From a virus (taxonomy: Duplodnaviria; Heunggongvirae; Uroviricota; Caudoviricetes), in IMG/VR virus record IMGVR_UViG_3300045988_142422: a stretch of DNA of 64,000 nucleotides; one strand, given 5' to 3'. Of the stretch, positions 1,789 through 58,240 are shown piece after piece. Under the pieces are notes generated by a model. The model had not been told where the DNA came from. It was given only the letters and a program-made list of their open reading frames with translations, and did no database searches. How positions within the stretch are numbered: position 1 is the first letter of the stretch; each line of letters opens with the position of its first letter. The position numbers were made by a program, and so were the translations under genes.

Positions 1789-1819
1789 TGGTGGAAAAAA
1801 ATTTTTATATCGGTAAAAA

Positions 1820-1837
1820 TAGGTAAGTATTTACCTA
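1820..1837. promoter_or_regulatory. Palindromic motif B copy (TAGGTAAGTATTTACCTA) upstream of tail-fibre gene
   Basis: Inverted repeat TAGGTAA/TTACCTA read directly; followed by GC hairpin GGCGGGC-N7-GCCCGCC (1840-1860) and the RBS of the 1882 CDS. Confidence 0.45.
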
Positions 1838-1881
1838 ATGGCGGGCAAGGATAGCCCGCCAAATCAAGGAGCATATTCAAC

Positions 1882-4800: not shown

Positions 4801-6270
4801 GAAGGCGCAATGACCATCCGAGTTACTACGCCTACAACGACAACCGGAGGTGGTATTGCCAGTGCTCAGTTCACCTATATTAATCACGGTAGCGCGTATG
4901 CCCCTGCCTGGCGCAGAGATTACAACACGACTCTCAAACCAACTGCGGCTGATGTTGGTGCGTTGCCGAGCGGTGGCGGCACACTTTCCGGCGCACTCAC
5001 ATTATCTATGGTTGCGCCGAGTGTTCAATTACGAGGGCAAGGTACTGATACCAGGCAGTACATCATGGCTTACAGAACCGATGGTGCTACATCATGGTAT
5101 GTAGGTAAGGCTAACAACGGCTCTGATAGCGCGATGCTCTGGAACTATACGGGGGCAAACGGAGTCGAGTTGGCTGCCGATGGCAATGTGCGCATTAATG
5201 CGAAGGGTAAGCAGTTTACGTTCGCAAACAACGGCAATTTGGGGCTTGTCGCTTCGTTGGATCAAAGTTCTGTTCCACAGGGCACTTACCATCAAGTTGC
5301 TATGAACTCTGGAACCAGAGGTGCTAAATCCTATCTTCGTAAGTTCAGGGGTGGGAACGCAGATACCGTCTGGCATGAAACCGTTCAAGACGGAAATTAC
5401 CGACTTGCTACTGGTGACACTGATTCTCAGGGTGAAATGTACCTTTCGACTTCGGGTTGGGTTCGTTTCCGTGGTGAAGTTGTTTCAGAATCGGCCAATG
5501 GTTTGCGAGCCGCATTCGGTAACTTCGGTTTCTTTATCCGAAATGATGGAACGAACACTTATTTCCTTTTGACAGCTTCAGGTGACAAGTACGGTTCTTG
5601 GAATGGTTTGCGGCCTCTGACTATCAACAATGTCAGTGGCGCAGTGTCAATGAGCAACGGACTAACTGTTGCTGGTGGACTTAATGTAACGAGCGGAAAC
5701 CTGAAAATCTCGACGTCCAGCACATCGTGGATCGACATGAGAGCAGGCGTAGCCCTTTCGAACTCTTCAGCTGTTTCGACGTCATCCGCTTCGGCGATAG
5801 TCCGTCAAGAACACGCCGATCGCCATTTCATTCTTGGCGGTTTGGGTAACTCGCAGTTCGGGATTTACATGATTAACAAATCTCGAACTGCGAACGGCAC
5901 TGACGCTGCCGCTTATCTCCAGAACGACGGCACTTGGGTTTGCGCAGGCAACGGTAGTTTTAATGACGTTTACATCCGTTCCGACCGCCGTAGTAAGCGC
6001 AATATTCGCAAAATTGAGCGGGCGCTCGACAAGCTGGAGCAGATCGAAGGTGTTCTCTACGAGATTCAGGTCTGTGGCCGTTATGAGCAGTCTGGTGGCC
6101 TCATCGCTCAGGATGTCCAGAATGTTCAGCCTGAACTGGTAACGGTCGACCATAACGATCAGTCAGGAGAGCCTCGTCTGCGTCTTAACTACAACGGCGT
6201 TATCGGCATGTTGGTTGAGGCTGTCAAAGAGCTGCGCGAGGAAGTGCGCGAACTGAAGGCAAAAATGTAA
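1882..6270 (+). CDS. Long (L-shaped-type) tail fibre protein with C-terminal intramolecular chaperone (peptidase S74-like) domain
   Basis: 1462 aa; long Ala/Ser/Thr-rich low-complexity tract; repeated NLPGVNTTGNQNTTGNAATATKLQTAR units; C-terminus SDRRSKRNIRKIERALDKLEQIEGVLYEI...LRLNYNGVIGMLVEAVKEL matches the autoproteolytic chaperone module of fibre/endosialidase proteins (from memory). Confidence 0.8.
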   Translation: MWYREGTITFTQGSNTLVGAGTAWNVTANGVLPGMIVIGPDNKLYEIKRVTSDTNIVLSEPYTGETQSEVPCRIITTYEGDLTQFSARFTALMSRMSADSKSMRSWLTALDEVTIEREDGTEVTVKPLMQIVNEHNENVEWYKNNTDAIDAAGDKAREAAASAAAAAESANTAGEKASQASQSVSAAASSQSAASASATAAKKSETNAAASQQSAATSASTATTKASEAATSARDAAASKEAAKSSETNASLSASSAASSATAAGNSAKAAKTSETNARSSETAAGQSASAAAGSKTAAASSASAASTSAGQASASATAAGKSAESAASSASTATTKAGEATEQASAAARSASAAKTSETNAKASETSAESSKTAAASSASSAASSASSASASKDEATRQASAAKGSATTASTKATEAAGSATAASQSKTAAESAATRAEAAADRAEEIAGAVAMEDASLTTKGVVKLSSAVDSTSESLAATPKAVKAANDNANSRVPSNRKVNGKALTADITLTPKDIGTLNSVTMSFSGGAGWFKLATVTMPQASSIVYIALIGGAGYNVGSPHQAGISELVLRAGNGNPKGITGALWKRTAVGLTNFAWINTSGDTYDIYVEIGNYATRVNIHWDCTANATVSIYTSPTYSASKPSSVTDGVVYTMYSSHQKPTPSDIGALPTTGGTVSGPLSVTGGLTGSLNGNASTATKLQTARSIGGVVFDGSANINLPGVNTTGNQNTTGNAATATKLQTARTIGGVSFDGTANINLPGVNTAGNQNTTGNAATATKLQTARNINGVKFDGSGDININTLVSRGRVTALSGSTQGTAGIQMYEAYSNNYPTSFGNVLHMKGASAAGEGELLIGWSGTDGAHAPVYVRSRRDTSTANWSGWAQVYTTAHKPTAKDVGAAQTFSASYSTGAGNWTTAEFIAWLKERGAFAVPYWMMKGSWSYADNKIITDTGVGNICLAGAVIEVLGHEGAMTIRVTTPTTTTGGGIASAQFTYINHGSAYAPAWRRDYNTTLKPTAADVGALPSGGGTLSGALTLSMVAPSVQLRGQGTDTRQYIMAYRTDGATSWYVGKANNGSDSAMLWNYTGANGVELAADGNVRINAKGKQFTFANNGNLGLVASLDQSSVPQGTYHQVAMNSGTRGAKSYLRKFRGGNADTVWHETVQDGNYRLATGDTDSQGEMYLSTSGWVRFRGEVVSESANGLRAAFGNFGFFIRNDGTNTYFLLTASGDKYGSWNGLRPLTINNVSGAVSMSNGLTVAGGLNVTSGNLKISTSSTSWIDMRAGVALSNSSAVSTSSASAIVRQEHADRHFILGGLGNSQFGIYMINKSRTANGTDAAAYLQNDGTWVCAGNGSFNDVYIRSDRRSKRNIRKIERALDKLEQIEGVLYEIQVCGRYEQSGGLIAQDVQNVQPELVTVDHNDQSGEPRLRLNYNGVIGMLVEAVKELREEVRELKAKM

Positions 6271-6279
6271 TCAAGGTGA

Positions 6280-7119
6280 ATGGTGAGGGGACACCCTCAC
6301 CAATTCAGGATATTCACATCAAAAAGGAGATTAGATGTGCCAATTGTCGGTGTTCCCGGTTGGATTGGGTCTTCGGCTGTCAGTGTGACAGGCCAGAGAT
6401 GGATGAGTGCGGCTCGAACGGCGGTGCAACTGCCAGCGGCTGGTTCAATGTCTCAAATGGCCGGGCGATCTAAAGAAGTTCAGTACAGCATCGGTGCGAA
6501 TCATAACTACAACAAAGACACACTGATCAACTATTTAAAATCCCAGGGGGCGACGCCAGTCGTTGTTACCATTACAGGGGATCTGGTGTCGTCCAGTAGC
6601 GGCGTGCCATGTTTAGATTTCCCGAGTTCACTTACCAACTCTTATATCAGCCTTGTAATCAACGCAGGTGTGACTGTCTATGGACGCGGTGGCAATGGTG
6701 GTAGTAACGCTGCCGGTGCTGCTGGTGGTAACGCAATTAATAATGGCATCGGTACACGCTTGCGTATTACGAATAATGGTGCAATCGCTGGAGGTGGTGG
6801 CGGCGGTGGCGGCGGTAACAGGGGTAAACTAATATTTGGTGGTGGCGGTGGTCGCCCATTCGGTGCTGGTGGGTCTTCCTCTCATATGAGTTCCGGTGCA
6901 ACTGCTGGTACTATTTCCGCTCCTGGTAAAGGATCTGTTGGTGAGGGGTCTCTTAGTGCATATACAGGCGGTTCGGGTGGTAATGTCGGTGCTGCTGGAG
7001 GAAGATGTAATACTCAAGGTAACGGTACAGAATATAACGGCGGAGCAGCTGGTAAAGCTGTTACTGGTAATGCTCCAACTTGGACTAAAGTTGGGGCAAT
7101 TTACGGCGCTCATGTGTAA
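6280..7119 (+). CDS. Glycine-rich protein of unknown function (possible fibre-associated protein)
   Basis: ORF directly after fibre gene; poly-Gly tracts GGGGGGGGGNRGKLIFGGGGGRPFGAGG; alternative GTG start at 6337 preceded by AAGGAGA. Confidence 0.45.
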   Translation: MVRGHPHQFRIFTSKRRLDVPIVGVPGWIGSSAVSVTGQRWMSAARTAVQLPAAGSMSQMAGRSKEVQYSIGANHNYNKDTLINYLKSQGATPVVVTITGDLVSSSSGVPCLDFPSSLTNSYISLVINAGVTVYGRGGNGGSNAAGAAGGNAINNGIGTRLRITNNGAIAGGGGGGGGGNRGKLIFGGGGGRPFGAGGSSSHMSSGATAGTISAPGKGSVGEGSLSAYTGGSGGNVGAAGGRCNTQGNGTEYNGGAAGKAVTGNAPTWTKVGAIYGAHV

Positions 7120-7193
7120 GTACTTACCTACCAAGTGTGGGCGTTTTATGATATAAAACCGCCATCCCGATTTGACGATTCATGGAGGAAATA

Positions 7194-9761: not shown

Positions 9762-10430
9762 ATGACCAAGATCTTTGTGGTTGGCGGCACAAAGGGCGGG
9801 CCTGGCAAATCCACCGTTGCCCAGCAAATTGCCGTTTGCCTGAAAGTCAAAAAGAAGAAGAAGGTTTATATTACCGATATAGATATTCAGCGCACGACAA
9901 CGAGCTGGTGTGAAGACCGTCGACAGAACGAAGACCTTGAGCTGATTCCTTTTGCATACGTTCAGGATGACATCATTAAGCACCTAAAATCGCTTCAGGG
10001 TAGAGCTGAGTTTGTAGTGGTAGATGCTGGTGGCTTCGACTCCGAAATTCAGCGACAAGCGATGCTGATGGCTGACGTTATCATTATCCCGCTGCGTCCT
10101 AAGCGTCGTGATTTGAAATCTTTACGTGACATCGATCCTATTATCGACAATGTTCGCAATGTAAACGATAAAGTGAAGGTCCGCGCGGTCATGAACCAGT
10201 GCCCGGCTTTGCCATCACAAGTGTCTCGCATTCTGGCGGCTAAAGAGATTGTTGAGACGTTTGGAATCGAGTCTGCGCCAGTCAATCTGTATAACCGCAA
10301 CGTCTATGATGATGCGGAAGAGTCTGGTCGTTCTATCTTTGAAATGACCGGTAGCGAGCGCGACAAAAAGGCGGAAGCCGAGTTTGAAGAATTTGTAGAT
10401 TATCTGTTGAGTCTGGAGGAAGAAGAATAA
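9762..10430 (+). CDS. parA: ParA-family partition ATPase
   Basis: Deviant Walker A GGTKGGPGKST near N-terminus, about 220 aa, followed by small partner gene with ATGA-type overlap. Confidence 0.8.
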   Translation: MTKIFVVGGTKGGPGKSTVAQQIAVCLKVKKKKKVYITDIDIQRTTTSWCEDRRQNEDLELIPFAYVQDDIIKHLKSLQGRAEFVVVDAGGFDSEIQRQAMLMADVIIIPLRPKRRDLKSLRDIDPIIDNVRNVNDKVKVRAVMNQCPALPSQVSRILAAKEIVETFGIESAPVNLYNRNVYDDAEESGRSIFEMTGSERDKKAEAEFEEFVDYLLSLEEEE

Positions 10431-10789
10431 TGTCCATGAAAATGGGTGACCTAGCAAAGCGCAAAGAGCCTGATGCACCGGCTAAGAACACAACTCCTTT
10501 GCGCCAACCAGTCAGACCACAGGGACGCCCGACTCGTGGCAAAGAGAAAATTAAAAGCCGCACAATGTCACTGGAGGACGAATACTTCGAACTGCTGGAG
10601 ATGATGAAGTTCATCCCTCGCTTCGAGAAGTTCACTCGTTCTGACGTGATTCGAGCTGCTATTTTCCATCTTGCGGAGAAGACACCGCAGGAAATCGAGG
10701 ACATCGTGAAACTTAACGAGGCGATCACAGCTGCCGACGTAACGATGCGTACCGATGAAATCAAACGCGAGTTGATGAAGAAGAGTTAA
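10430..10789 (+). CDS. Small partition partner protein (ParB/ParG-like centromere-binding candidate)
   Basis: 119 aa basic N-terminus, start overlaps parA stop (TAATG); position and size typical of type Ib partition adaptor; no motif verified. Confidence 0.45.
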   Translation: MSMKMGDLAKRKEPDAPAKNTTPLRQPVRPQGRPTRGKEKIKSRTMSLEDEYFELLEMMKFIPRFEKFTRSDVIRAAIFHLAEKTPQEIEDIVKLNEAITAADVTMRTDEIKRELMKKS

Positions 10790-10827
10790 GAATAAGGCGC
10801 CAGATGGCGCCTATATTTTAAAGTGGT

Positions 10828-11505
10828 TTATTTATTGCCAGACGGTAATACATAGTAGCGGATTGTAGTACCCTCCATTTCAATAACCTTGAATGCAAGG
10901 TTTTTATATTCGACTTTTGTTTTCGCATCGGAAAGAGGCACTGAAAACTCGGTCTTAGTTTCATCTAAACTTGGGTAGCTTTCGGAATAAATAAATTTAA
11001 GGTCGTCGCCACTTTTGCCATTATAAGAAATAGACTGAACAATCTTTTTCTCTACATGGCAGGGGACATTTTGTGCGAATTTTATGGATATTTCGGAGGC
11101 GTCGAACGTCGTAGTGTTGGGAGGAGATATAGTGTTTTTGACCTTGTCATACTTGACGTTATCAGTGTGGCTCACTACCTGCCCTGTAATGGCCTTCAGG
11201 CCAACAGCTTTTGAGTCTTCAAAGTTCCGGTAGACCCCACCACCAACGTGGCAGTAGTTGCCCGCTTTAATCTCAGACATCGAACCAGAAGCGTTACCAA
11301 GAGTGACCATGTCGGTTTTTAACGTGGACACAAACGTGTTATAAACGACAAGGTCACCCATTTTCGCCTTTGACTCTACGTTAGAGGAAGGCAATATTTC
11401 TTGGGTTAGGATTGGTTTTACAGTGGCATTTTGTTGTGGGTTACTTTGTTGCGCGCAACCGGCTAATAATAAAACTAAAAGTGCCGCTGACTTATTCGCC
11501 TTCAT
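10828..11505 (-). CDS. Lipoprotein of unknown function
   Basis: Signal peptide with lipobox MKANKSAALLVLLLAGC; 225 aa. Confidence 0.55.
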   Translation of the reverse strand: MKANKSAALLVLLLAGCAQQSNPQQNATVKPILTQEILPSSNVESKAKMGDLVVYNTFVSTLKTDMVTLGNASGSMSEIKAGNYCHVGGGVYRNFEDSKAVGLKAITGQVVSHTDNVKYDKVKNTISPPNTTTFDASEISIKFAQNVPCHVEKKIVQSISYNGKSGDDLKFIYSESYPSLDETKTEFSVPLSDAKTKVEYKNLAFKVIEMEGTTIRYYVLPSGNK

Positions 11506-11868
11506 TCTTAATTCCCTTTCTACGTGATTGGTACATTGTTTATTTCTGGACGTTTCTTAAGTTGTAGACGCTATTCTGTGTCTGAGTAATCTACAATAAT
11601 TTGTTACACTTAACAATGTTGCAACCGTCTGGCGTGCAGCTGTTTTGAAGTAGATCTTAAGGTTGCATACCATGAGACTAAAAACTAGGTTGGGTTGGTT
11701 TTTGACCTGCTTCCGTATATAAATACTAAGTTACTTATTATTATTTATACGGAAGCAGGTCTTTTATCTGCTGACTTCCCAGATACATTCCCTTCCGTTT
11801 CCACTTCCAAAAACTGCCACCAGTCGCTATCATCCGCTCATCGTGATAAGTAAGTAACTACCTACCAG

Positions 11869-19563: not shown

Positions 19564-19638
19564 GATGGTGTAGCTCAGCGGTAGAGCAGTTGGCTGTTAA
19601 CCAACTGGTCGGTGGTTCGAATCCACCCACCATCGCCA
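19564..19638 (+). tRNA. tRNA-Asn (anticodon GTT)
   Basis: Cloverleaf by eye: acceptor GATGGTG/CACCATC, D-arm GCTC/GAGC, anticodon loop CTGTTAA, T-loop GGTTCGAATCC, 3' GCCA. Confidence 0.85.
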
Positions 19639-19640
19639 AT

Positions 19641-19716
19641 GCCGGTTTAGCTCAGTTGGTAGAGCGCCTGCCTTGTAAGCAGGATGTCAGCGGTTCGAGT
19701 CCGTTAACCGGCACCA
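19641..19716 (+). tRNA. tRNA-Thr (anticodon TGT)
   Basis: Acceptor GCCGGTT/AACCGGC, anticodon loop CTTGTAA, T-loop TTCGAGT, 3' ACCA; 2 nt after tRNA-Asn. Confidence 0.85.
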
Positions 19717-19786
19717 ATACAACGATAAGATCATTACGGTTAATCGTCGTTCATGTGCACAATGACTGGTCGAAAGGTAGTGATCT

Positions 19787-19938
19787 TACCGTTGTGGTGG
19801 ATTCGCAGACTGATGCGATAGCTTTCTTGGATGTTAGGGAAATGCGGCCGCAAATCTTCCCTTTCGCGAGCGGTGATCGTCCGTAGTCCTAATTGGCTGC
19901 ACCGTATGCCGGAGATTCAGTACCGGCCACCACAACGG
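19787..19938. other. Long-range inverted repeat (12 bp CCGTTGTGGTGG / CCACCACAACGG) enclosing about 126 nt
   Basis: Arms 19787-19800 and 19927-19938; second arm ends 2 nt before tRNA-Ser. Confidence 0.5.
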
Positions 19939-19940
19939 CC

Positions 19941-20027
19941 GGAGAGTAGGGAGCATGGTGCTCAAGCGGTCTTGAAAACCGTCCCATTGCGCAAGCGATG
20001 ATGGTTCGATTCCATTACTCTCCGCCA
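19941..20027 (+). tRNA. tRNA-Ser (anticodon TGA), long variable arm
   Basis: Acceptor GGAGAGT/ACTCTCC, anticodon loop CTTGAAA, long variable arm, T-loop GGTTCGATTCC, 3' GCCA; D-arm atypical. Confidence 0.7.
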
Positions 20028-20029
20028 GA

Positions 20030-20107
20030 CACAGCGTTGAGCGGTTTGGCCTTTTAATCAACTCGATTAAGACTCCGCTAACATAAACCAGACCGCTCAA
20101 CGCTGTG
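20030..20107. other. Long hairpin: 16-bp perfect inverted repeat CACAGCGTTGAGCGGT with about 46-nt loop, directly after tRNA-Ser
   Basis: Arms 20030-20045 and 20092-20107; shares CACARCGTTGAG core with the 19176 hairpin. Confidence 0.6.
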
Positions 20108-20181
20108 ATAGACAATTACGGCAGACGTTCTTAACCATAGCTTGCTAACATCCTAGCAACACTTTTTTAAGCGCAAAATCC

Positions 20182-20205
20182 AAAGGGGCTTCGGCCCCTT
20201 TTTTG
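20182..20205. terminator. Bidirectional rho-independent terminator
   Basis: GGGGC-TTCG-GCCCC stem-loop flanked by A-run and T-run (AAAGGGGCTTCGGCCCCTTTTTTG). Confidence 0.8.
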
Positions 20206-21114
20206 TTAATGATTGCCTAGATATGATTTTAGTTCTTCTTTAATGATTAGTGAGTATTCTAAAATATCACTTAGTAAAAATTTTGCTCTGTTAAAATACC
20301 CACCAAAAGAACCTAAAATTTCAGATGGTCTTTCTAAGAGCATCACAATATCATCTTCTTGCACTTTAGTAATGTAACTTCTAACAGCTTTTTCTCCAAT
20401 AACTCTTTTCTTACCGTTTATTTCAGATTCATCTAAAACCTTATTTATAAATTTTTCTGTATCATTGAATCGTCCACTATTGTGTACTATTGTATGTCTT
20501 AGTAGTTCAATTAGCTTGATGTTAAAGCGATAGTTTTTGCCAATCTTGTTGTTTGTTTCTATCTCTTTGAAGCCAGGTATTTTATTTCTGAAAATTTTAG
20601 TTATTTTTTTCGATGGGTTACTTTTTGCTTTTAATAATCTGTAATAAACTTCCCTTTTCCCAATTTCATCATCTTCAACCTTACCAAAATCACTTGAGGA
20701 CCATAAATCATTTCGAACACATACAGTATAGACATATATTGCCTCAATATAGTCTTCCAGTAACTCATAGGCTTCAGTAATAACCCACTGATATTGTTTA
20801 TTTTTCAAAGTATTACACAATCTTATCTTTTCTTCTAAATCAATGGCGCTGTTACCTATCTCTAATGTTGAACCTGTATATGGGTTTGAACATAAATGGC
20901 GAGCTAACGTTGTGCCACACTTAATCTTAATAGTTTCATTAATATTAATAATAGTATCTGGATTCTGTGCATACTCCACTTCTTTAAGAAGACGTTTTAT
21001 ATTTTTCTTTGTTGTATCATTTATCTGATTTAAATAGTCAAAAAGTAAAGATATTTCTTCTCTAAATTCGTTGTATTTATTTTCAATCAAAGAATCAGAC
21101 AACTTACCAATCAT
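20206..21114 (-). CDS. AT-rich hypothetical protein with HEPN-like R-x4-H motif (candidate abortive-infection/defence protein)
   Basis: 302 aa, Lys/Asn/Ile-rich, markedly lower GC than flanks; motif LLRHTIVHNSG; isolated on minus strand between tRNA cluster and glutaredoxin. Confidence 0.3.
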   Translation of the reverse strand: MIGKLSDSLIENKYNEFREEISLLFDYLNQINDTTKKNIKRLLKEVEYAQNPDTIININETIKIKCGTTLARHLCSNPYTGSTLEIGNSAIDLEEKIRLCNTLKNKQYQWVITEAYELLEDYIEAIYVYTVCVRNDLWSSSDFGKVEDDEIGKREVYYRLLKAKSNPSKKITKIFRNKIPGFKEIETNNKIGKNYRFNIKLIELLRHTIVHNSGRFNDTEKFINKVLDESEINGKKRVIGEKAVRSYITKVQEDDIVMLLERPSEILGSFGGYFNRAKFLLSDILEYSLIIKEELKSYLGNH

Positions 21115-21287
21115 TAAAACCTCTATAAAATGTACATTTCAAGGCAATCCTTACTGTAATCTATTGTCGTAATCACTTCAATTGTTTACTAGTCAATCAA
21201 TAAGTTACTACATACTTATCAAAAAAATCTGTTTGTAGTATAGTCTGATATGTTCGAATCAATATTTATAAAGGTATTTGTTAAGTT

Positions 21288-21533
21288 ATGACGATCACTA
21301 TCTACGGACGAGATAACTGCTCATACTGCAAACGTGCGGTCGAGCTGGCGAAGCAACTAAAGGGACATGGCTACGGTGATTATGAGTACATCGACATCAC
21401 CACTGCCGGTATCGACAAGGAAAAACTAAGTGAAATTGTTGGTAAACCGGTAGAGACTATCCCCCAGGTGCTGATCGATGGCCAGCCGATTGGCGGATAC
21501 ACAGAACTGGCTGTATACGTCAGCACCCTCTGA
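21288..21533 (+). CDS. Glutaredoxin-like protein
   Basis: 81 aa; redox motif CSYC near N-terminus; size and pattern typical of Grx/NrdH. Confidence 0.7.
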   Translation: MTITIYGRDNCSYCKRAVELAKQLKGHGYGDYEYIDITTAGIDKEKLSEIVGKPVETIPQVLIDGQPIGGYTELAVYVSTL

Positions 21534-21540
21534 TTTTAAC

Positions 21541-21563
21541 GGCTCACAGGAGCCGTTTTTTAT
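21541..21563 (+). terminator. Rho-independent terminator
   Basis: CGGCTC-ACAG-GAGCCG followed by TTTTTTA. Confidence 0.7.
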
Positions 21564-21743
21564 TCCCACCAAACCACTCCTGTTTCCCTTAAAATTCAAA
21601 AAACAACGTCTAAATGATTCCATACCTACTATGTATGGAATCATTGCTGAAAATGAGTTACTTTTACTCTTGATCCTATAAGAATCTATGCCTAATATAC
21701 TGTTTACTTATACAGTGCATCGGCGTAACTCGGTGATTGTCAT

Positions 21744-35731: not shown

Positions 35732-36805
35732 ATGGCAAAAGGAAAATCCGCACTGGCACTTGCTCTGAAAAAGAAAATCGGTAGCAACGACGAAATTCAG
35801 AAAGTAACTCATTGGATTGATACAGGCTTTCCACCGTTAAACAAAGCTATTTCTGGTCGTTACGATGGCGGCTTCCCATGTGGTCGTATCGTCGAAGTAT
35901 TCGGTCCTCCAAGTGCAGGGAAAACGTTCCTTGCAACAGCAGCGATGATCTCCGCTCAAAAACAAGATGGTCTGGCGGTATTCCTCGATCATGAAAACAG
36001 TTTTGACGTTGGCCTGGCTGTCGCCAATGGCCTGAACGCAGATGAGGATGACGGTCAGTGGGTATACAAGCAGCCAGATACCTTCGAAGACTCTGTAGAG
36101 TTGATCGGCACAATACTTAAATTGGTTCGTGATGAAGAGCTTATCCCCGAATCAGCACCTATCTGTATCGTGGCTGACTCTCTTGCGTCTATGGTTCCGA
36201 ACTCCAAAGCCGAGAAGTTCGAAAAGATGGCTGAAGGCACTGCCAAAGACAAAGATCAGCTAAACATGAACGACAATACGGCACTGGCTCGTGCGACGAG
36301 TGCGAACTTCCCTACTCTGGCTTTGTGGGCACGCAAATACAACGCCTGCATCATCTTCTTGAATCAGGTTCGCACAAAAATCGGTGTAATGTTTGGCGAC
36401 CCTACTACGTCGCCAGGTGGAGATTCACCGAAGTTCTACGCTTCTGTACGTATCCGTCTTGGTGCATCGGTGATGAAGGATGGTAAAGAGAAGATCGGCC
36501 AGGACGTAGGCGCAGAATGCATCAAAAACAAAGTTGCACCACCGTATGGCAAATGCACCTGGAAATTCTACTTCGATCCTACTCGTGGCCTCGACGTTAT
36601 CGAATCGCTCGTCGAGTACATGCTGGAAGAAGGATACCTGCCAAAGAACGCCAGCGGGCGAGTTGAAATTGGTGACAAGAAATACACCAAATCGCAGATC
36701 GTTGAGATGTATCGGGAGAAGCCACTGGCTGAAATCATTGCGGCTTTACAGGCAATCGACGACCGAAGAGCAAAAGACAACCCCACCGAGTCAGTAGAAG
36801 AGTAA
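35732..36805 (+). CDS. RecA/UvsX-like recombinase
   Basis: Walker A FGPPSAGKTFLA, 357 aa. Confidence 0.75.
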   Translation: MAKGKSALALALKKKIGSNDEIQKVTHWIDTGFPPLNKAISGRYDGGFPCGRIVEVFGPPSAGKTFLATAAMISAQKQDGLAVFLDHENSFDVGLAVANGLNADEDDGQWVYKQPDTFEDSVELIGTILKLVRDEELIPESAPICIVADSLASMVPNSKAEKFEKMAEGTAKDKDQLNMNDNTALARATSANFPTLALWARKYNACIIFLNQVRTKIGVMFGDPTTSPGGDSPKFYASVRIRLGASVMKDGKEKIGQDVGAECIKNKVAPPYGKCTWKFYFDPTRGLDVIESLVEYMLEEGYLPKNASGRVEIGDKKYTKSQIVEMYREKPLAEIIAALQAIDDRRAKDNPTESVEE

Positions 36806-38999: not shown

Positions 39000-39331
39000 A
39001 GGCCATCCCATTCGCGCTGTTGTTCCTTTCTTCGATCGTTGTGGCCGACACCACTGTTTATCAGTGTGAAATGTCTGTAGCCGACGTTAAGAATGGCGCT
39101 CTTACCGACGTCATAAAAGCACCATATGGAGCGATGGTCGTAGACAGCGGCGACCAGTTCTATGTTGTGCGTGACGATCGAGTGTTGTCATCCCCATATC
39201 TCACAAATCGTAATGGCAAACTGACCGGAGTAGGAGAAGACCACTTCACATACAACAAATACCAGGGCTTTTATGGCATTCACGCTTCTACAAAAAGCTA
39301 CCTTTTCGATGACTGCAAGGAGATTGGATAA
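38996..39331 (+). CDS. Secreted/periplasmic small protein
   Basis: Signal-peptide-like N-terminus MKAIPFALLFLSSIVVA. Confidence 0.45.
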   Translation: MKAIPFALLFLSSIVVADTTVYQCEMSVADVKNGALTDVIKAPYGAMVVDSGDQFYVVRDDRVLSSPYLTNRNGKLTGVGEDHFTYNKYQGFYGIHASTKSYLFDDCKEIG

Positions 39332-39543
39332 TGGCGGTGACACTGGCAGGTCTGGAAATCGAGAAAACAAGCGGATACTGGCGTTCCAAAGGATTCAAAA
39401 AAGCCAGCATACAAGATCGGCTAGAGCGTGAAGATGGATACATCATCCACCAGCGCAAGGAGTGGAGAATGGTTGATCCTGAGACTGGTAAGCTCGCAAC
39501 GAAGGCTCAGACACTCTGGGGTTTATTGAAGAAAATTCACTGA
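39331..39543 (+). CDS. Hypothetical small basic protein
   Basis: 70 aa, start overlaps upstream stop. Confidence 0.4.
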   Translation: MAVTLAGLEIEKTSGYWRSKGFKKASIQDRLEREDGYIIHQRKEWRMVDPETGKLATKAQTLWGLLKKIH

Positions 39544-39552
39544 TAACACCAA

Positions 39553-40030
39553 CCACTGCGGTGAGTAGTCTGCTCACCGCATTCGTATCCAGCTCATTAT
39601 CCACTGTAGTCAGTAACAAAACCTTCCTACATATCTGCTAACCACTGTAGCGAGTAGACAGCCTTTCATTCGCATCAAACAACCACTATGGTGAGTATTG
39701 GAGTGAGATGTCCAGCGGGTATCCACTATGGTGAGTAAGCCTTTGCTGTTTTCAGTGGATATCCACTCGCCACAGTGGATACGCTCAAAGATGAGGGCGA
39801 CAACAACCACTATAGACAGTAAATTTTCCAAGATACCCAGTGACCACTAACCTCGCAGCCCTTGTTTCATCAGTGTTAGTGATCACTAACATTTAATTCG
39901 GTATTTGCATTCTACTGCCTACAGTGGTTATCAACAGATAACGATACTCACTATAGTGGATAGCGAATTACAGATATAAGTAAGGCTCACTACAGTGGAT
40001 AGTGAGCCTTACTACTAACTACAGTGGTTG
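39553..40030. repeat. Iteron array downstream of repA (copy-control locus candidate)
   Basis: At least 9 copies of about 16-22 bp units with core CCACTRYRG / CYRYAGTGG in both orientations. Confidence 0.8.
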
Positions 40031-40032
40031 GG

Positions 40033-41088
40033 CTATTTGCGAGTCTTTGCCTTGCGCAACTCTTCGAGAAGCGCCAGTTCTTCTTTACTCAACATGACCA
40101 TTTTGCCTTCTTTTTCGTCAGGCACAACGTCGATAATGTCATCTTGATTCTCATCTGGGAGGCTATATTCCGTCTCATCATTATCGATTTTTGTTGATAT
40201 TTGTGCCTGGCGTAACTTTGGCCGCCTATAGTGGATGACGAAGTAGACCGAGTTTCCGCGCTTAACTTCCGTGTAATCGAGATATCCTATCTCTCGCAGC
40301 TGTTCCATAGCCTTTCTTACCGTCGCATTCTGAGTAATAGTGCGACTTGTCAGATTAAGTCTGGCGCGTAAACGGGCTAGTGATATTGGTGCCGGATCAG
40401 GCGGCAAACTTTCAATAAAAGTATAAAGCGCCTGAGCGGATTCTTTTCTTGAGAGTTCGTTTATAGCCCGGAGTTGCAGAAGAACCTTTTTGTCGAACTG
40501 GTAGAGTTCGAAAATCTTGGGATCTGCTTTCAGTTCGACCGTATCGTGCTTGACACTATATTTTGCCGTTTGCACAAGATGCGTTACGTAAAACTCATCA
40601 GAGCCTTTGCTACGGAACGAGATGGTATTTGTGGCAATACGGCTTAGCGAACTGTCCAGGCGTTTGCGTAACTTCGCTGATGACCTGGCGGTCGGAATGC
40701 CACACAGCCTTACAAACTCAACGAACGGCAACGTGACAGTATCGCCAACGACCTTGTGTTTGGCAAACGCGTGGATTATTCCCACCCACGTTTTAAAGTC
40801 GTTATCCATATCAAGCCGAAGGCCAGAGATCCTTATGTCTTCGTACCCTTCGGCTTTTGCCAGAGACAGCTGTTTGAGTTCAGCAGAGGCATCCATAGAG
40901 ACCATTTGCCCCTTTCTTCCTCTGGATGTCGATTTCAGCGTCGGAACGAAGAGGCCCAGACGCATCAAAGCAACAGGCTGAACAGTGTTATTAGTGTTAG
41001 GAACCAACGTAACAACTTCGCCTGTCTTTTTATCTGTTTCTGAAAATGCTTCAACGATCGCTATGTTTTTATTGCCGTTTTCGCTCAT
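40033..41088 (-). CDS. repA: Iteron-binding replication initiator RepA (Rep_3 / RepFIB-P1-like)
   Basis: 351 aa minus-strand ORF flanked on both sides by iterons; family assignment by context and general resemblance, not searched. Confidence 0.7.
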
Positions 41089-41130
41089 TCCAAATGTCTC
41101 TTGTTATTCGACGGCTTTGGTGGCCTTTGC

Positions 41131-41256
41131 TGATTACAGTGGATAGTAGCACTCATCACAGCGGTTATCCTACCGTCTATAGTGGTTTTTCTCCTCTCTA
41201 TAGTGGTTGCTTTGCTCCCTATAGTGGATTATTCGCTCTCTATAGTGGATATCGAT
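41131..41256. repeat. Iteron array immediately upstream of repA
   Basis: Six tandem units about 21 bp: TACAGTGGATAG, CACAGCGGTTAT, CTATAGTGGTTT, CTATAGTGGTTG, CTATAGTGGATT, CTATAGTGGATA. Confidence 0.8.
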
Positions 41257-41298
41257 CATGTCTGAAGGCAGATGGCACAACGGTTTGAGGTGGGCGGG

Positions 41299-41513
41299 GA
41301 TCTTATTGGGTCTTTATGGGTCTCTTTGGTTCTCTTTGTGATCTGAATTACTGGATCGGGCCTGTGGATAAAAATCAGAGGATTTCAAGAACAGGTAACT
41401 CTACTCTTCTGTGGATATTTAAGGACATAAGAATCATGACTAAGAGTAGAGTTTAAAATATATCTATGTATATCAGTATGTTAATGAAGAATTAAGTCAT
41501 TAAGTTATCCATA
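41299..41513. promoter_or_regulatory. Origin-like region: DnaA-box matches, AT-rich tract, GATC sites
   Basis: TGTGGATAA at 41363-41371 (perfect DnaA box complement), TGTGGATAT at 41410-41418, TTATCCATA at 41505-41513; GATC at 41299, 41340, 41354; AT-rich 41440-41500. Confidence 0.6.
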
Positions 41514-41525
41514 AAAGACAATGTG

Positions 41526-41636
41526 CTCTACTCTCTACAGTGGATATATACAGCTCTCCAGAGTGGTTGTTTTACTCTTCATAGCGGTTATTCAGCTCTC
41601 TACAGAGGTTTCTTTGCTCTCCATAGTGGATGGCAA
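41526..41636. repeat. Second upstream iteron array
   Basis: Five units about 22 bp with cores CTACAGTGGATA, CCAGAGTGGTTG, CATAGCGGTTAT, CTACAGAGGTTT, CCATAGTGGATG. Confidence 0.75.
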
Positions 41637-41672
41637 CACCCTTTCAGACCAGTAACCGCAACGGCTAGAGGC

Positions 41673-41730
41673 GATCGGGGATCTCTTTGGATCTTCTATT
41701 TGATCTTACTTGGGATCTCTTATTTGGATC
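41673..41730. promoter_or_regulatory. Cluster of six GATC sites in 58 bp (Dam/SeqA-type control candidate)
   Basis: GATC at 41673, 41680, 41690, 41702, 41714, 41727 within GGATCT-type short repeats. Confidence 0.55.
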
Positions 41731-41831
41731 TATCCAGTGGATAACTGGGATAAGTAAAACAGGCAAATGCAGATTAAGGTATGCCTAATGAGTTATCGTA
41801 GCATCGGCTAACAATCACAGAAAAATGACAT

Positions 41832-42476
41832 ATGGATCTAAAACGCACGCGCTGGGTTCGTCGTCTTGAAGACTGCTCCTACACTATCGAATCAAATTCC
41901 AACCTGAATAAGCAGAAGTTGCTTTGTGACATCTGCGGTATAGCGGCGAAGTGCCCGATCTACGAAACCAGAATTAAACTTGATAAGGCTGGTGTGAATT
42001 TTCATTTAAACAGTTGCATCAGGTACGTTCCATTACTCGCATTTCGTAAACCGATCATCGGATTGGATGCTCCCTACTTCAACACACTCCGTTCAGGTGT
42101 GACGTGGCGAGATCGTTTATCACCAGACAAGCTGATTTGCCTCGTATCCGCAGACACAGGGAAAATCATCCGTTTTGGGAAAGTAGACAAGGTTTACTCA
42201 GGCCCAGTAGACGAAATGTTGCGGAAACACAGCCGGTTTAATCATCTCTGTATGGGTGGTGAGAAAATCGAGAAAGTAGAAGAAGTGATCCGCAAATCCT
42301 ACGGACACTTTCTGACCAAAGATAGCCTGCTCACCGCAATCTACATCAGACATGTAAAACGTGAGTTCGACCTCGAATACCACAGCGAAGAAGAGCTTAA
42401 CCTTGTTGACCCACGTCCAAAAGCTGGCGTCATAAGCATAAACGCAGCGCGTAAAAAGCCCACTGACGCGCTGTAA
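41832..42476 (+). CDS. Hypothetical protein
   Basis: 214 aa ORF next to origin region; several Cys near N-terminus. Confidence 0.45.
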   Translation: MDLKRTRWVRRLEDCSYTIESNSNLNKQKLLCDICGIAAKCPIYETRIKLDKAGVNFHLNSCIRYVPLLAFRKPIIGLDAPYFNTLRSGVTWRDRLSPDKLICLVSADTGKIIRFGKVDKVYSGPVDEMLRKHSRFNHLCMGGEKIEKVEEVIRKSYGHFLTKDSLLTAIYIRHVKREFDLEYHSEEELNLVDPRPKAGVISINAARKKPTDAL

Positions 42477-55146: not shown

Positions 55147-55155
55147 GGAGTAGTA

Positions 55156-55950
55156 ATGGGACAACCGGTAGACATAACAGGTAAACGTTTTGGAAAGTTG
55201 GTTGCACTTAAATATTCCGGTATTTCAAACAAACAAGGGCGACTTTGGGATTGCATCTGCGATTGCGGCAACACCTGCCTGGTTAGTTACGGGAAGCTAA
55301 ATCACGGGGCGACAATATCGTGTGGCTGTGTCTACAACGCACATCGCCGTAGCGTAAAGCCTCATGGTATGAGTAAAACGCCAATTTATCGTATATGGCT
55401 GGGTATGCGGGAACGATGTGAAAAACCAACCCATCACGCCTATAAGTGGTATGGCGGCCGAGGTATCAAAGTCTGCGAGCGGTGGCAAATATTTGAAAAC
55501 TTTTATGCTGACATGGGAGAGCGACCAGAGGGGATGTCTCTTGATCGCAAAGATGTGAATGGTGACTACGAACCTGAAAATTGCAGATGGGCGACTTTTG
55601 AAGAACAGGCCAATAACACGCGTTCAAACTTAATTTTGGAGCATAAGGGGGAAAAGCTGACTCTCTCACAATGGGCTAAAAGAGCCGGGATTCAGACATC
55701 AACTCTTCACTATCGAATCAAGAAAGGGTGGCCATTAGATCGCGCGCTTAACGCCAGCGTCGACACGTATGCCAACCGAGATAGTAAGCGTCTGATCGAG
55801 TGTCGCGGCAGAACTCAGCGAATTACCGAATGGGCTAGAGAGATTGGCTTGACTGCGACCATTATCTCGCAGCGAATCTTGAGGGGGTGGGATGTTGAAG
55901 CTGCCATCTTCACACCGTCCAAACGACCAGTAAAAGGAGATAAAAAGTGA
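55156..55950 (+). CDS. HNH-type homing endonuclease candidate
   Basis: Cys cluster CICDCGNTC...CGC; motif YRIWLGMRERC...YKWYGGRGIKVCERW...NCRWATFEEQANNTRSN recalled from phage HNH endonucleases. Confidence 0.5.
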   Translation: MGQPVDITGKRFGKLVALKYSGISNKQGRLWDCICDCGNTCLVSYGKLNHGATISCGCVYNAHRRSVKPHGMSKTPIYRIWLGMRERCEKPTHHAYKWYGGRGIKVCERWQIFENFYADMGERPEGMSLDRKDVNGDYEPENCRWATFEEQANNTRSNLILEHKGEKLTLSQWAKRAGIQTSTLHYRIKKGWPLDRALNASVDTYANRDSKRLIECRGRTQRITEWAREIGLTATIISQRILRGWDVEAAIFTPSKRPVKGDKK

Positions 55951-56495
55951 TTGCTACAGGGGTGGACATCGAATCAACAGGTCTTGATTTCCTCTCAGGC
56001 CATAAAATCATTGAAATCGCAATGGTGAAGTACGAAATTGAGACACAGACAATGGTTGATAGTTTTGTAATGCGGTTCAACCCGCGTCGCAGTATCGATC
56101 CGAAAGCGCAAGCGGTACACGGCATCAGTCTTGAAGATTTAGCCGCCGAGCCGTTACTAGCCGATCACGCTTCATCTGTCGCTTCGTATCTCTCTTCTTC
56201 CGATATTTGGATAGCCCACAACGGCGAAGCGTTCGATATTCCGTTTATTAGGCATGAGCTGAAAAGTTACGGTTTTTCGCTTCCAGACATCCCATTGATT
56301 GACACTCTATTTTCCCTGTGGGCCACAGAAGACGGTAAACGTCCCCGCCTTGAAGAGTTGGCCTTCTCTCTTGGCTTTATATACGATCATGCCAAAGCAC
56401 ATAGTGCCTTATATGACACAAACTTAATGATGCAATGCTTCTTTAAGGCACGTAATAAGTACGGATTTTTTAAATTACCCTCTGAAATTGTGTAA
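55947..56495 (+). CDS. DnaQ-like 3'-5' exonuclease (DEDDh)
   Basis: GTG start after AAGGAG; Exo I DIESTGL, Exo II HNGEAFDIPFI, Exo III HSALYD. Confidence 0.75.
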   Translation: MIATGVDIESTGLDFLSGHKIIEIAMVKYEIETQTMVDSFVMRFNPRRSIDPKAQAVHGISLEDLAAEPLLADHASSVASYLSSSDIWIAHNGEAFDIPFIRHELKSYGFSLPDIPLIDTLFSLWATEDGKRPRLEELAFSLGFIYDHAKAHSALYDTNLMMQCFFKARNKYGFFKLPSEIV

Positions 56496-57646: not shown

Positions 57647-58240
57647 ATGATTGCAGCCGAAAAAATCAAACAGCGAAAGCGCGACAACTCTCTTCGTGAC
57701 CTCTGGAGAACACCTGACTGGCTGTTTTCTGCCATTCAACGTTATCTTGGAGTGACATTTGATGTTGACGTTGCCTGCAACAAGGACAATGCAAAGCTGC
57801 CTAATTTCATAGGCGTTGAGCGTGATGCTTTGAAATCTGAATGGGGACAGCCAGGTACAATTGCCTTCCTCAATCCACCCTACTCCAAAATCTCCCCCTG
57901 GATTGATGCGGCTATACGTGAGCAGGCTCGCGGAGTTACAACAGTGATGCTAATTCCTCAATCCCTAGATACAAAGTGGTATGAGCGTGCAACAGAGTGT
58001 GCGAATGAGACGATTATTCTGTCTGGTGGCCGCGTAGCGTTTGTCGAGCCTGACGTAAATCTGGGTCAGGTAGAAGTAAACATCAACCCAGGTGGCAGTA
58101 TGCTCGTTGTTTTTCGAGGATTCTGTCAGGACGCTGGGCACTCTATAAGCAAGATCCCTTTGGACGTCATGAAAAGTCTGGGAGGGTATGATCCTGCGAA
58201 TGTGATCAGGAAAAAAAGACCATCAAAGAAGGCTGCTTAG
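57647..58240 (+). CDS. DNA N6-adenine methyltransferase (phage Dam-type)
   Basis: WRTPDWLF N-terminal motif and catalytic NPPYS. Confidence 0.7.
   Translation: MIAAEKIKQRKRDNSLRDLWRTPDWLFSAIQRYLGVTFDVDVACNKDNAKLPNFIGVERDALKSEWGQPGTIAFLNPPYSKISPWIDAAIREQARGVTTVMLIPQSLDTKWYERATECANETIILSGGRVAFVEPDVNLGQVEVNINPGGSMLVVFRGFCQDAGHSISKIPLDVMKSLGGYDPANVIRKKRPSKKAA

Follow-up and report, generated by a model that had tools for sequence, protein, structure and literature searches.

How does the prophage of a tailed phage replicate when its genome carries what looks like a plasmid replicon? This question is raised by a locus in the 64-kb stretch of DNA analysed here (the window), where an initiator gene on the minus strand is bracketed by three arrays of direct repeats. 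The original prediction was that the locus is an iteron replicon laid out like those of P1 and RepFIB and that the element replicates as a plasmid prophage. From the evidence set out below, we think it very probable that the region is the theta replicon of the prophage (plasmid) state of a pLF82/Cyrano-type phage-plasmid of the SSU5 supergroup, and that it belongs to the RepFIB/P1 class.

The initiator gene and its iterons

The gene and the region downstream of it contain the following features.

39548 to 40032, both strands: 12 iterons immediately downstream of repA that form a putative incA-like control array, with the last unit abutting the stop codon
39825 to 39909: iteron-free gap within the downstream array, largely identical to SSU5
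40033 to 41088, minus strand: repA, ATG start at 41088, 351 aa, predicted iteron-binding initiator of the Rep_3 (WH1-WH2) family, RepFIB/P1 clade
40226 to 40234, plus strand: exact match to the iteron core within the 3' part of repA

The predicted minus-strand gene for a 351-aa initiator was recovered as an open reading frame. We searched its product against the Rep_3 family models (Pfam PF01051/PF21205), using the gathering cut-offs as thresholds. Both domains passed, Rep3_N (WH1) at residues 115-225 with 42.2 bits against a cut-off of 22.4, and Rep3_C (WH2) at residues 236-281 with 22.6 bits against 21.1, which is barely over the cut-off. The suggested likeness to the RepFIB and P1 initiators was also found. 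RepA is 60% identical to the RepFIB Rep of the F plasmid over the full length (E 5e-143) and 49% identical to P1 RepA (E 5e-93). Because these are two experimentally characterised initiators, the family is settled and RepA is, by sequence, a Rep_3 initiator. It is 100% identical to the RepA of Cyrano and 91% identical to that of SSU5. Codon positions 1, 2 and 3 of repA are 97, 98 and 68% identical to SSU5, a sign of purifying selection on the gene. Identity to relatives at third codon positions was 65-68%, and we took this as the neutral rate. RepA had no sequence match in the PDB at E values up to 10, either as a single protein or as a 7-member profile, and an NCBIfam search returned nothing meaningful. 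An AlphaFold model from the single sequence only had a pLDDT of 39 and a pTM of 0.25, too low to read from it a two-winged-helix fold like that of RepE, pi or pPS10 RepA.

Counted as oriented 23-nt units with the consensus TRCTCWCYAYAGTGGWT, 23 iterons flank repA. Downstream there are 12, in both orientations, and the upstream side has a nearer group of 6 and a farther group of 5. The earlier count of at least 9, 6 and 5 copies was thus right and conservative. The existence of three arrays sharing the core CTAYAGTGG around repA was also upheld. There are 13 exact matches to this core in the window, every one between 39601 and 41543. When one mismatch was allowed, 39 matches were found compared with 15.7 ± 3.9 in shuffled sequences, none of the 100 shuffles reached 39, and 20 of the 39 fall inside 39601-41629. 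Partition centromeres and transcription-factor operators can also have repeat arrays around the gene of a DNA-binding protein, in which case repA would encode a regulator. We regard this as scarcely credible given the 49-60% identity of RepA to known initiators, the absence of the exact core from the rest of the window, the placement of the arrays exactly as in P1 and RepFIB, and a parA locus that lies 30 kb from the repeats.

The exact core inside repA (40226-40234) is present at the equivalent position in 5 of 5 relatives. It overlaps codons of a conserved IHYRRP motif, and coding constraint may explain its conservation. For this reason we did not count it as a functional iteron.

In the downstream array, six units are on the minus strand (starts 39548, 39596, 39637, 39678, 39718 and 39802) and six on the plus strand (starts 39741, 39761, 39910, 39942, 39981 and 40010); 2 of the 12 carry two core mismatches. 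The four units nearest to repA, which are the last four on the plus strand, are oriented as the origin iterons are. The repA-distal units are mostly inverted, with those at 39741 and 39761 as the exceptions. The array is kept in SSU5, pMT, E. coli S56 pB and Citrobacter RHB20 with insertions and deletions of whole units; the 15-16 core matches in these relatives come from a lenient scan with up to two mismatches and probably include some chance sites. By analogy with P1 incA and with iterons E-K of RepFIB (PMC11983097), the array at 39548-40032 would be a control array. The iteron-free gap holds a 16-bp perfect palindrome, GTTAGTGATCACTAAC, at 39874-39889, which is not conserved in the alignment with SSU5. 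An Rfam scan of 39200-42000 gave only a chance-level snoRNA match (E 0.35) and nothing for the gap.

Two origin modules upstream of repA

Upstream of repA, an entire origin module is duplicated in tandem, each copy made up of iterons, a GC-rich spacer, a GATC tract and a DnaA box. This double architecture was present in all five representatives examined.

41125 to 41253, plus strand: proximal upstream array, 6 iterons at a 21-22 bp phase, 37-165 nt upstream of the repA ATG
41254 to 41372: proximal host-factor cassette, with a GC-rich spacer, a decayed GATC tract and a perfect DnaA box
41373 to 41525: inter-module spacer, 71% AT here, 153-155 bp long in all five representatives
41526 to 41634, plus strand: distal upstream array, 5 iterons at a 21-23 bp phase, counterpart of the five P1 incC repeats
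41635 to 41767: distal host-factor cassette, with a GC-rich spacer, 6 GATC sites and DnaA boxes

The proximal array is 86-90% identical to SSU5, pMT and S56, compared with 65-68% at third codon positions of repA. Its position relative to repA is that of P1 incC, which contains PrepA, and it is probably the repA operator together with an auxiliary control or origin array. In the cassette that follows, GATC remains at 41299, 41340 and 41354, and the other units of the tract now read GGTCT or GTTCT. The perfect DnaA box, TTATCCACA, at 41363-41371 on the minus strand is one of only two in the window. The segment that contains the GATC-like tract and this box (41296-41372) is 86-95% identical to SSU5, pMT and S56.

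The distal array is 81-85% identical in all four relatives compared, including the most divergent, and adjoins a cassette homologous to P1 oriR; its units are the probable origin iterons. The cassette carries GATC at 41673, 41680, 41690, 41702, 41714 and 41727, and this cluster is the densest in the window (6 in 70 bp, compared with 3 in the next densest and a mean of 4.1 per kb). A DnaA box, AGTGGATAA, at 41736-41744 is followed by a degenerate second box. The cassette aligns with the annotated Dam sites and DnaA site of P1 oriR (74.5% identity over 98 nt, E 9e-10) and also occurs in F RepFIB and in PhiR41_1. Control by Dam/SeqA, the binding of DnaA and the opening of the strands probably take place in this cassette. 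The GATC-like tract is better conserved in the proximal module (86-95%) than in the distal one (75-78%).

The GATC (Dam) tracts and the duplicated module behind both upstream arrays had been missed in the original prediction.

DnaA-box matches and an AT-rich tract had been placed between the two upstream arrays, and both are there. In addition to the perfect box, the spacer has DnaA-like sites with one mismatch at 41410 (minus) and 41505 (plus), and its core (41425-41520) is 76-80% AT. However, the same tract is only 58-62% AT in four relatives and its sequence is not conserved either. The AT content of the spacer as a whole is 55-60% in relatives. Its identity to them is 62-65%, close to the neutral rate, whereas the iteron arrays and cassettes are 75-95% identical. 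We therefore rejected the tract as a conserved unwinding element; it is specific to this lineage and evolving neutrally, and an essential part in unwinding is unlikely.

Of the two copies, the distal one (41526-41767) probably acts as the origin proper, which would leave the proximal one (41125-41372) the role of an operator or auxiliary array. We read the modules in this way because the distal one has kept all 6 GATC sites and because the single modules of PhiR41_1, P1 and F consist of iterons joined to this same cassette. The roles could be reversed, with the proximal module as the origin and the distal one as a second control locus or spare origin. The proximal array lies as close to the ATG as P1 incC does, its module has the same position relative to repA as the single origin in P1, F and PhiR41_1, it holds the only perfect DnaA box of the replicon, and its tract and box form the best-conserved non-coding segment. 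By contrast, half of the Dam sites are gone from the proximal tract (3 compared with 6), the cassette homologous to the Dam-site and DnaA segment of P1 oriR is the distal one, and this distal cassette is 96.6% identical in PhiR41_1 despite a different Rep and different iterons. On balance we consider the reversal rather unlikely and keep the distal module as the probable origin.

The two copies stay 153-155 bp apart and both appear to be under purifying selection, and we tentatively suggest that the ancestral functions may have been divided between them. Having kept all its Dam sites, the distal copy would then be an origin controlled by methylation and sequestration, and the proximal copy, with half of its own lost, would be a methylation-independent operator, a handcuffing partner or a back-up origin. 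We found no description of such a divided double module in the SSU5/pMT1/pHCM2/pLF82 branch of RepFIB in the searchable literature, a scope that leaves aside the 1998 pMT1 papers and Gilcrease & Casjens (2018). A 2026 bioRxiv preprint on phage-plasmid heteroresistance mentions repA 41 times and iterons not at all.

A promoter and terminator scan gave 8 promoter-like sites compared with 4.0 ± 1.9 expected, and the best of them (41484-41457, minus strand) falls in the neutrally evolving inter-module spacer. The scan revealed no convincing conserved promoter for repA; for the one candidate in the proximal array (41255-41228, minus strand), SSU5 does not keep the -10 hexamer. Cumulative GC skew climbs steadily without a turning point at the replicon and is therefore uninformative.

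Comparison with P1, RepFIB and PhiR41_1

The P1/RepFIB-like layout of the original prediction agrees with the annotated map of P1 (incA, repA, incC/oriR) and with the published map of RepFIB (PMC11983097). In P1, incA has 9 iterons, and incC has 5 iterons at a 21-bp phase, followed by 5 Dam sites and a DnaA site. The parts have the same order and orientation here, with a control array in two orientations that abuts the repA stop, five phased origin iterons, a GC-rich spacer, a GATC tract and DnaA boxes, and the GATC/DnaA segment is 74.5% identical to that of P1 at the nucleotide level. P1 incA likewise has its 3 repA-proximal units in the orientation of the origin and 6 inverted. Each of the two replicons serves the prophage state of a phage-plasmid that encodes a Dam-type methylase of its own. 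The differences are that the P1 iteron, GATGTGTGCTGGAGGGAAA, is unrelated in sequence, so that the P1 iteron and IncY specificity are absent here; that P1 RepA has 286 aa rather than 351 and lacks the N- and C-terminal extensions; and that P1 has a single origin module. In P1, parAB is immediately beside incA, whereas parA is 30 kb away here. P1 is also a myovirus, and its virion genes are unrelated.

The protein and the iterons are, as judged from these alignments, closer to RepFIB (F, P307, pO157) than to P1. The 60% identity of the initiators extends through an acidic C-terminal tail that ends in LALLE-L. In RepFIB too, repA lies between iterons on both sides, with a DnaA site (PMC11983097). 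The left 12 nt of the iteron, TACTSACTACAG, are common to the F RepFIB iterons, and F has a tract of 5 GATC sites and a DnaA box homologous to those found here. The 3' part of the iteron is TGGWT here and CTTAT in F, and because this half differs, specificity and incompatibility are probably distinct. RepFIB starts with CTG (PMC11983097), a start associated with weak rep translation. This is absent here, where the ATG at 41088 lies 18 codons upstream of the start that aligns with F and adds 18 N-terminal residues. There are two tandem origin modules rather than one and 12 downstream iterons rather than about 7, and the host of the replicon is a tailed phage-plasmid instead of a conjugative plasmid.

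Sister phage-plasmids with a replicon of the PhiR41_1/CMS-2020a type provide a different comparison. Their flanks are 95-96.6% identical to those here, with the same GATC/DnaA cassette and the same neighbouring genes, and they have a P1-like layout with 9 downstream and 5 upstream iterons. However, their RepA is only 46-49% identical, their iteron, ACCGCTGACAGCATA, is unrelated, and they have a single origin module. Rep and iterons form a cassette (39542-41642) that is swapped between phage-plasmids otherwise 95-97% identical. As these alignments read, this 2.1-kb cassette is exchanged as a unit between the PhiR41_1 type and the replicon described here.

Plasmid state and its control

The window is collinear with the phage-plasmid Cyrano/pLF82 at 96-99.6% identity and shares the gene order and sequence of the SSU5 supergroup, including genes for the virion, lysis and DNA metabolism. 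Many E. coli plasmids match the replicon itself at 99.7% identity, and the replicons of SSU5, of 106.7-kb S. enterica plasmids and of Y. pestis pMT do so at 83-84%. Among 5,426 complete E. coli genomes, 245 carry it, and each of the 288 matches in them is on a plasmid and none on a chromosome; in PLSDB, 461 plasmids have it. The relatives were typed as IncFIB by MOB-suite, and the SSU5 supergroup has been reported to be mostly IncFIB (PMC7969092). The PlasmidFinder type name IncFIB(pLF82-PhagePlasmid) is in use for such elements. Siphovirus particles have been attributed to Cyrano, for which a copy number of about 5.5 per chromosome is given (PMC9928086), and SSU5 has been isolated as a phage. 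Extrachromosomal maintenance of the present element is supported by proxy, from the plasmid location of the E. coli matches and the copy number of Cyrano, and with the collinearity these data bear out the predicted plasmid prophage.

Two further genes concern the plasmid state.

9762 to 10430, plus strand: parA, 222-aa ParA/MinD-type ATPase, with Pfam matches to MipZ, AAA_31, CbiA and ParA
57647 to 58240, plus strand: Dam-family N6-adenine methyltransferase (Pfam PF05869 Dam, 131.8 bits, E 2.5e-38)

Cyrano is annotated with a 'ParA plasmid partitioning protein' at the position collinear with parA, which here lies 30 kb from repA and would provide the partition function of the plasmid state. 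The Pfam matches and the collinearity with the Cyrano annotation likewise agree with the parA, tail-fibre and lysis genes noted earlier in the window.

Could the replicon nevertheless be a decayed or silent remnant, with the element maintained by its own helicase, primase and Pol III alpha, or by integration? In the part of Cyrano that is collinear with the window, the annotation lists a helicase, a primase, a DNA ligase, Pol III alpha and an integrase, and in one related record, Klebsiella pJN2-26, attL and attR are annotated around the rep gene. We consider this very unlikely since the repA reading frame is intact and under purifying selection, the iterons and cassettes are conserved above the neutral rate, all 288 copies in E. 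coli reside on plasmids of about 100-160 kb with none on a chromosome, and Cyrano is episomal at ~5.5 copies (PMC9928086).

A working model for an active replicon can be drawn from homology, on which we base the proposed binding and opening, the handcuffing, the autoregulation and the way the two modules would share the work. RepA would bind the 17-19 bp iterons. RepA on the phased upstream iterons, together with host DnaA on the adjacent boxes, would open the Dam-methylated GATC tract, onto which the host replisome would be loaded. After initiation the hemimethylated GATC sites may be sequestered, as at P1 oriR. RepA bound to the 12 downstream iterons (39548-40032) would pair with origin-bound RepA ('handcuffing'), and the same iterons would titrate RepA, with both effects holding the copy number low. 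RepA on the repA-proximal array probably represses its own promoter. In RepFIB it was shown experimentally that the upstream iterons are the origin and that the downstream iterons exert control (PMC11983097).

The replicon is an ordinary one that is already known, catalogued and used for typing. SSU5, pHCM2, pMT1 and pLF82/Cyrano do not differ substantially from the window, and the differences are allelic; they concern the number of control-array iterons (12 here compared with 15-16 in the lenient scan), the AT-richness of the spacer and a recA-like gene without an intein. The finding itself therefore adds little, as SSU5-like phage-plasmids and IncFIB-type repA genes are catalogued, used for typing and widespread, and the element family also includes Y. 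pestis pMT1 and S. Typhi pHCM2. In practice it is useful because it provides, for a clinically common family that also carries resistance genes, a map with explicit coordinates for the control array, both origin modules, the Dam tracts and the DnaA boxes. Such a map would guide mini-replicon construction, the prediction of incompatibility and the design of curing cassettes, for which the downstream iterons are the effective part in RepFIB. Two details are perhaps worth experiment, namely the duplicated origin module and the clean exchange of a Rep and iteron cassette between near-identical backbones. Finally, a link between the Dam methyltransferase encoded by the element and the GATC tracts of the origin is possible.

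Anatomy of the replicon and its initiator

The original prediction described a 351-aa minus-strand gene set between three iteron arrays that share the core CTAYAGTGG, with at least nine copies downstream, six upstream and five farther upstream. The open reading frame and all three arrays were found, with 12, 6 and 5 iterons, respectively, and with both orientations represented downstream. The exact core occurs 13 times in the 64-kb window, always within 39601-41543. Allowing up to one mismatch gave 39 matches compared with 15.7 ± 3.9 in dinucleotide-preserving shuffles (n = 100), none of which reached 39, and 20 of the 39 lie within the 2-kb replicon region. Extension of the cores yielded 23 iteron units; their consensus is TRCTCWCYAYAGTGGWT, and six positions are invariant.

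Features of the replicon
39548-40032, 6 units on plus and 6 on minus strand: downstream (control) array, 12 iterons, the last adjoining the repA stop codon
40033..41088, minus strand: repA, 351 codons, ATG start
41125-41253: proximal upstream array, 6 iterons in 21-22 bp phase, 37-165 nt 5′ of the repA ATG
41363-41371, minus strand: perfect DnaA box TTATCCACA between the upstream arrays, one of two in the window
41526-41634: distal upstream array, 5 iterons in 21-23 bp phase

As predicted, DnaA boxes (two with one mismatch besides the perfect one) and an AT-rich stretch (41425-41520, 76-80% A+T) lie between the upstream arrays. About half of the iterons (39548-41634) end in AGTGGATA, one to two mismatches from the DnaA box TGTGGATAA, and TTATCCACT at 39597 doubles as an iteron and a DnaA box with one mismatch; at such sites DnaA and RepA might compete. 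An exact core also occurs within repA (40226-40234, plus strand) and at the equivalent position in five of five relatives; because it overlaps codons of the conserved IHYRRP motif, coding constraint may account for all of this conservation. Midway through the control array is an iteron-free gap (39825-39909) in which about 45 nt (CCCAGTGACCACTAACCTCGCAGCCCTTG...) are nearly identical to SSU5. In this lineage the gap holds a perfect 16-bp palindrome, GTTAGTGATCACTAAC (39874-39889), with GATC at its centre. Just 3′ of the repA stop codon, a perfect 11-bp stem, AAGGCTCACTA/TAGTGAGCCTT (39972-40020), surrounds the core of iteron 11; a canonical intrinsic terminator was ruled out here, as no T-run follows the stem on either strand.

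A profile search agreed that the protein is an initiator. RepA scored above the Pfam curated cut-offs for both Rep_3 domains (Rep3_N/WH1, 42.2 bits; Rep3_C/WH2, 22.6 bits) and is 60% identical over nearly its full length to the plasmid F RepFIB initiator (E 5e-143) and 49% identical to phage P1 RepA (E 5e-93). In a seven-sequence alignment the conserved core is present, as is an acidic C-terminal tail of RepFIB type that is missing from P1 RepA; relative to P1 RepA, the window protein has both N- and C-terminal extensions. A sequence-based search detected no solved structure matching RepA, and a single-sequence AlphaFold model (pLDDT 39) was too poor for use.

The order and orientation of these parts match annotated P1, in line with the predicted P1/RepFIB-like layout. 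In the same orientation, the P1 record reads incA (nine RepA-binding iterons that run up to the repA stop), repA, incC (five iterons in 21-bp phase with PrepA inside), five Dam sites and a DnaA site. Within incA, the three iterons closest to repA point the same way as the origin iterons and the six farther off are inverted; similarly, in the window's control array the four units closest to repA share the direction of the origin iterons, and inversion is seen in most of the distal units. RepFIB likewise has upstream iterons (BCDD′) that are part of the origin and downstream iterons (E-K) that form a control element. It is the E-K iterons alone that displace a resident FIB replicon, which was read as evidence of handcuffing between the upstream and downstream sets (PMC11983097).

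The F RepFIB iterons are related to those of the window: their consensus, TACTSACTACAGCTTAT, has its left 12 nt in common with the window iterons, but its 3′ part is CTTAT rather than TGGWT, so iteron specificity has probably diverged between the two replicons. P1 iterons are unrelated in sequence to those of the window. P1 also has one origin module where the window replicon has two, and the window's parA (9762-10430), 30 kb away from repA, encodes a small ATPase of the ParA/MinD type and does not belong to a P1-style adjacent parAB operon. Each element carries its own methylase: P1 has a GATC methylase in addition to a Dam-dependent plasmid origin, and the window has a predicted Dam-family N6-adenine methyltransferase gene (57647-58240, plus strand; PF05869, E 2.5e-38).

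A phage-plasmid and its relatives

The entire window is collinear with Escherichia phage Cyrano (= pLF82), whose annotated RepA is 100% identical. Cyrano is a documented phage-plasmid (PMC9928086; PMC2941450) whose copy number is about 5.5 per chromosome, and siphovirus particles have been ascribed to it (PMC9928086). This collinearity bore out the presence of parA, tail-fibre and lysis genes. The collinear phage genes include those for tail host-specificity, tail fibre, holin, endolysin and spanins; others are parA and helicase, primase, ligase, Pol III alpha, recombination and nucleotide-metabolism genes.

A 2.8-kb region containing the replicon shares 97.4% identity with Cyrano and 82.7% with Salmonella phage SSU5; matches to it were found in 461 PLSDB plasmids from the genera Escherichia, Enterobacter, Yersinia, Salmonella and Citrobacter. 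Across the replicon proper (39544-41831), identity is 99.7% with many E. coli plasmids and 83-84% with Y. pestis pMT and with S. enterica plasmids of 106.7 kb, the reported size of pHCM2. The replicon is present in 245 of 5,426 complete E. coli genomes, and all 288 places are on plasmids and none on a chromosome. MOB-suite types the relatives as IncFIB, and the label 'IncFIB(pLF82-PhagePlasmid)' is routinely used. Phage-plasmids typed as IncFIB are reported to come mainly from the SSU5 supergroup (PMC7969092). Because of the collinearity with episomal Cyrano, the plasmid-only location and the IncFIB typing, the conclusion that this is a plasmid prophage of a tailed phage was right. A plasmid-type iteron replicon in a phage-plasmid is already known, and this is a named and very common replicon type.

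Collinearity with Cyrano (otherwise 96-99.6%) is broken at 4281-7149, 10782-11700, 19722-21595 and 55151-56317. These segments, among them the 3′ region of the tail fibre and a stretch of low GC content (36%) at 20-22 kb, are presumably mosaic replacements. Three tRNA genes (Asn-GTT, Thr-TGT and Ser-TGA; 19564-20027, plus strand) are annotated in Cyrano too. The recA-like gene (35732-36805, plus strand) encodes 357 aa, and the homologous ORF in Cyrano and pEHP91H1-1 is 2,340 nt long and annotated by PGAP as a LAGLIDADG homing endonuclease (1166-3505 in the related record L001). The window's gene is missing about 1.26 kb of this ORF (1357-2621), which would fit an allele lacking an intein.

A duplicated origin module

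Alignment of 41120-41380 with 41515-41760 extended over the whole length with 78% column identity. Both the proximal module, near repA (41125-41372), and the distal module (41526-41767) consist of iterons, a GC-rich spacer, a tract of short GATC-bearing repeats and a DnaA box. The original prediction overlooked both the GATC tracts and the duplication. No GATC cluster in the window is as dense as the distal tract, which has six in 70 bp (next densest, three; mean, 4.1 per kb). In the proximal tract three GATC are left, and decay has turned the remaining units into GGTCT or GTTCT. Similar clusters of five or six GATC lie 5′ of repA in P1, F RepFIB and the PhiR41_1 record. The distal tract and its DnaA boxes (41672-41767) align with the Dam-site/DnaA-box part of P1 oriR (74.5% over 98 nt, E 9e-10), and AGTGGATAA at 41736-41744 exactly matches the first of the two tandem P1 DnaA boxes.

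We compared the window with SSU5, Y. pestis pMT, E. coli S56 plasmid B (S56) and one Citrobacter plasmid. The double-module architecture, GATC clusters and control array are present in all four, and array length varies by whole iteron units.

Nucleotide identity of replicon segments to relatives (SSU5, pMT and S56; Citrobacter)
repA third codon positions, near-neutral yardstick: 65-68%; 50%
Proximal iterons: 86-90%; 67%
Proximal GATC-like tract and DnaA box: 86-95%; 74%
Distal iterons: 84-85%; 81%
Distal GATC tract and DnaA boxes: 75-78%; 63%
Inter-module spacer: 62-65%; 43%

Measured against third codon positions, both modules are constrained. The inter-module spacer (41373-41525) changes at about the neutral rate, and its length is steady at 153-155 bp in the five examined, which hints that distance or phasing between the arrays matters. 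The spacer is A+T-rich only in the window/Cyrano lineage (76% in the window, 58-62% in relatives). This lack of constraint on sequence and composition argues against the AT-rich tract as an essential unwinding element. By analogy with what is established for P1 oriR, opening is more likely to occur in the GATC tract.

Exchange of the Rep-iteron cassette and roles of the modules

The sister phage-plasmid PhiR41_1 (L005) matches the window at 95-96.6% identity as far as 39541 and from 41643 onward, with no nucleotide similarity between these points. Its RepA is 46-49% identical to that of the window, its iteron, ACCGCTGACAGCATA, is unrelated, and a single P1-like module holds nine iterons downstream and five upstream. 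The replacement is clean: 2.1 kb of the window (39542-41642), holding repA and all iterons, corresponds to 2743-4464 in PhiR41_1. Because the flanks match while RepA and iterons differ, we infer that Rep and all of its own iterons (39542-41642) are an exchangeable specificity cassette. The GATC/DnaA tract common to both elements begins directly after the last origin iteron, and on this comparison we regard it as a 'host-factor' cassette that is conserved backbone, joined directly to the origin iterons. Such exchange looks like a route to a new incompatibility type that leaves the host-factor part of the origin untouched. The conserved module duplication and the clean exchange may be the only parts undescribed, a statement that does not extend to the older pMT1 papers and the Gilcrease & Casjens survey.

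This junction of backbone and origin iterons is the main reason for thinking that the distal module is the origin proper and the proximal module an operator or auxiliary array, an assignment we hold at slightly better than even. The reverse, with the proximal module as origin, is appreciably less probable, and a small share is left for both modules firing or for neither assignment being meaningful. The P1 and RepFIB literature suggests that RepA monomers would bind the phased origin iterons, DnaA would bind the adjoining boxes, and the Dam-methylated tract would open and then be sequestered while hemimethylated. The downstream array with RepA would handcuff the origin and titrate initiator, giving low copy number, and RepA bound near its own promoter would autoregulate repA.

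In Klebsiella phage pJN2-26 (L012, 1746-3035) the depositor annotated attR and attL directly on either side of the rep gene of this SSU5-like element. Phage attachment sites at rep are odd for a plasmid replicon, and these may in reality be iteron-like repeats.
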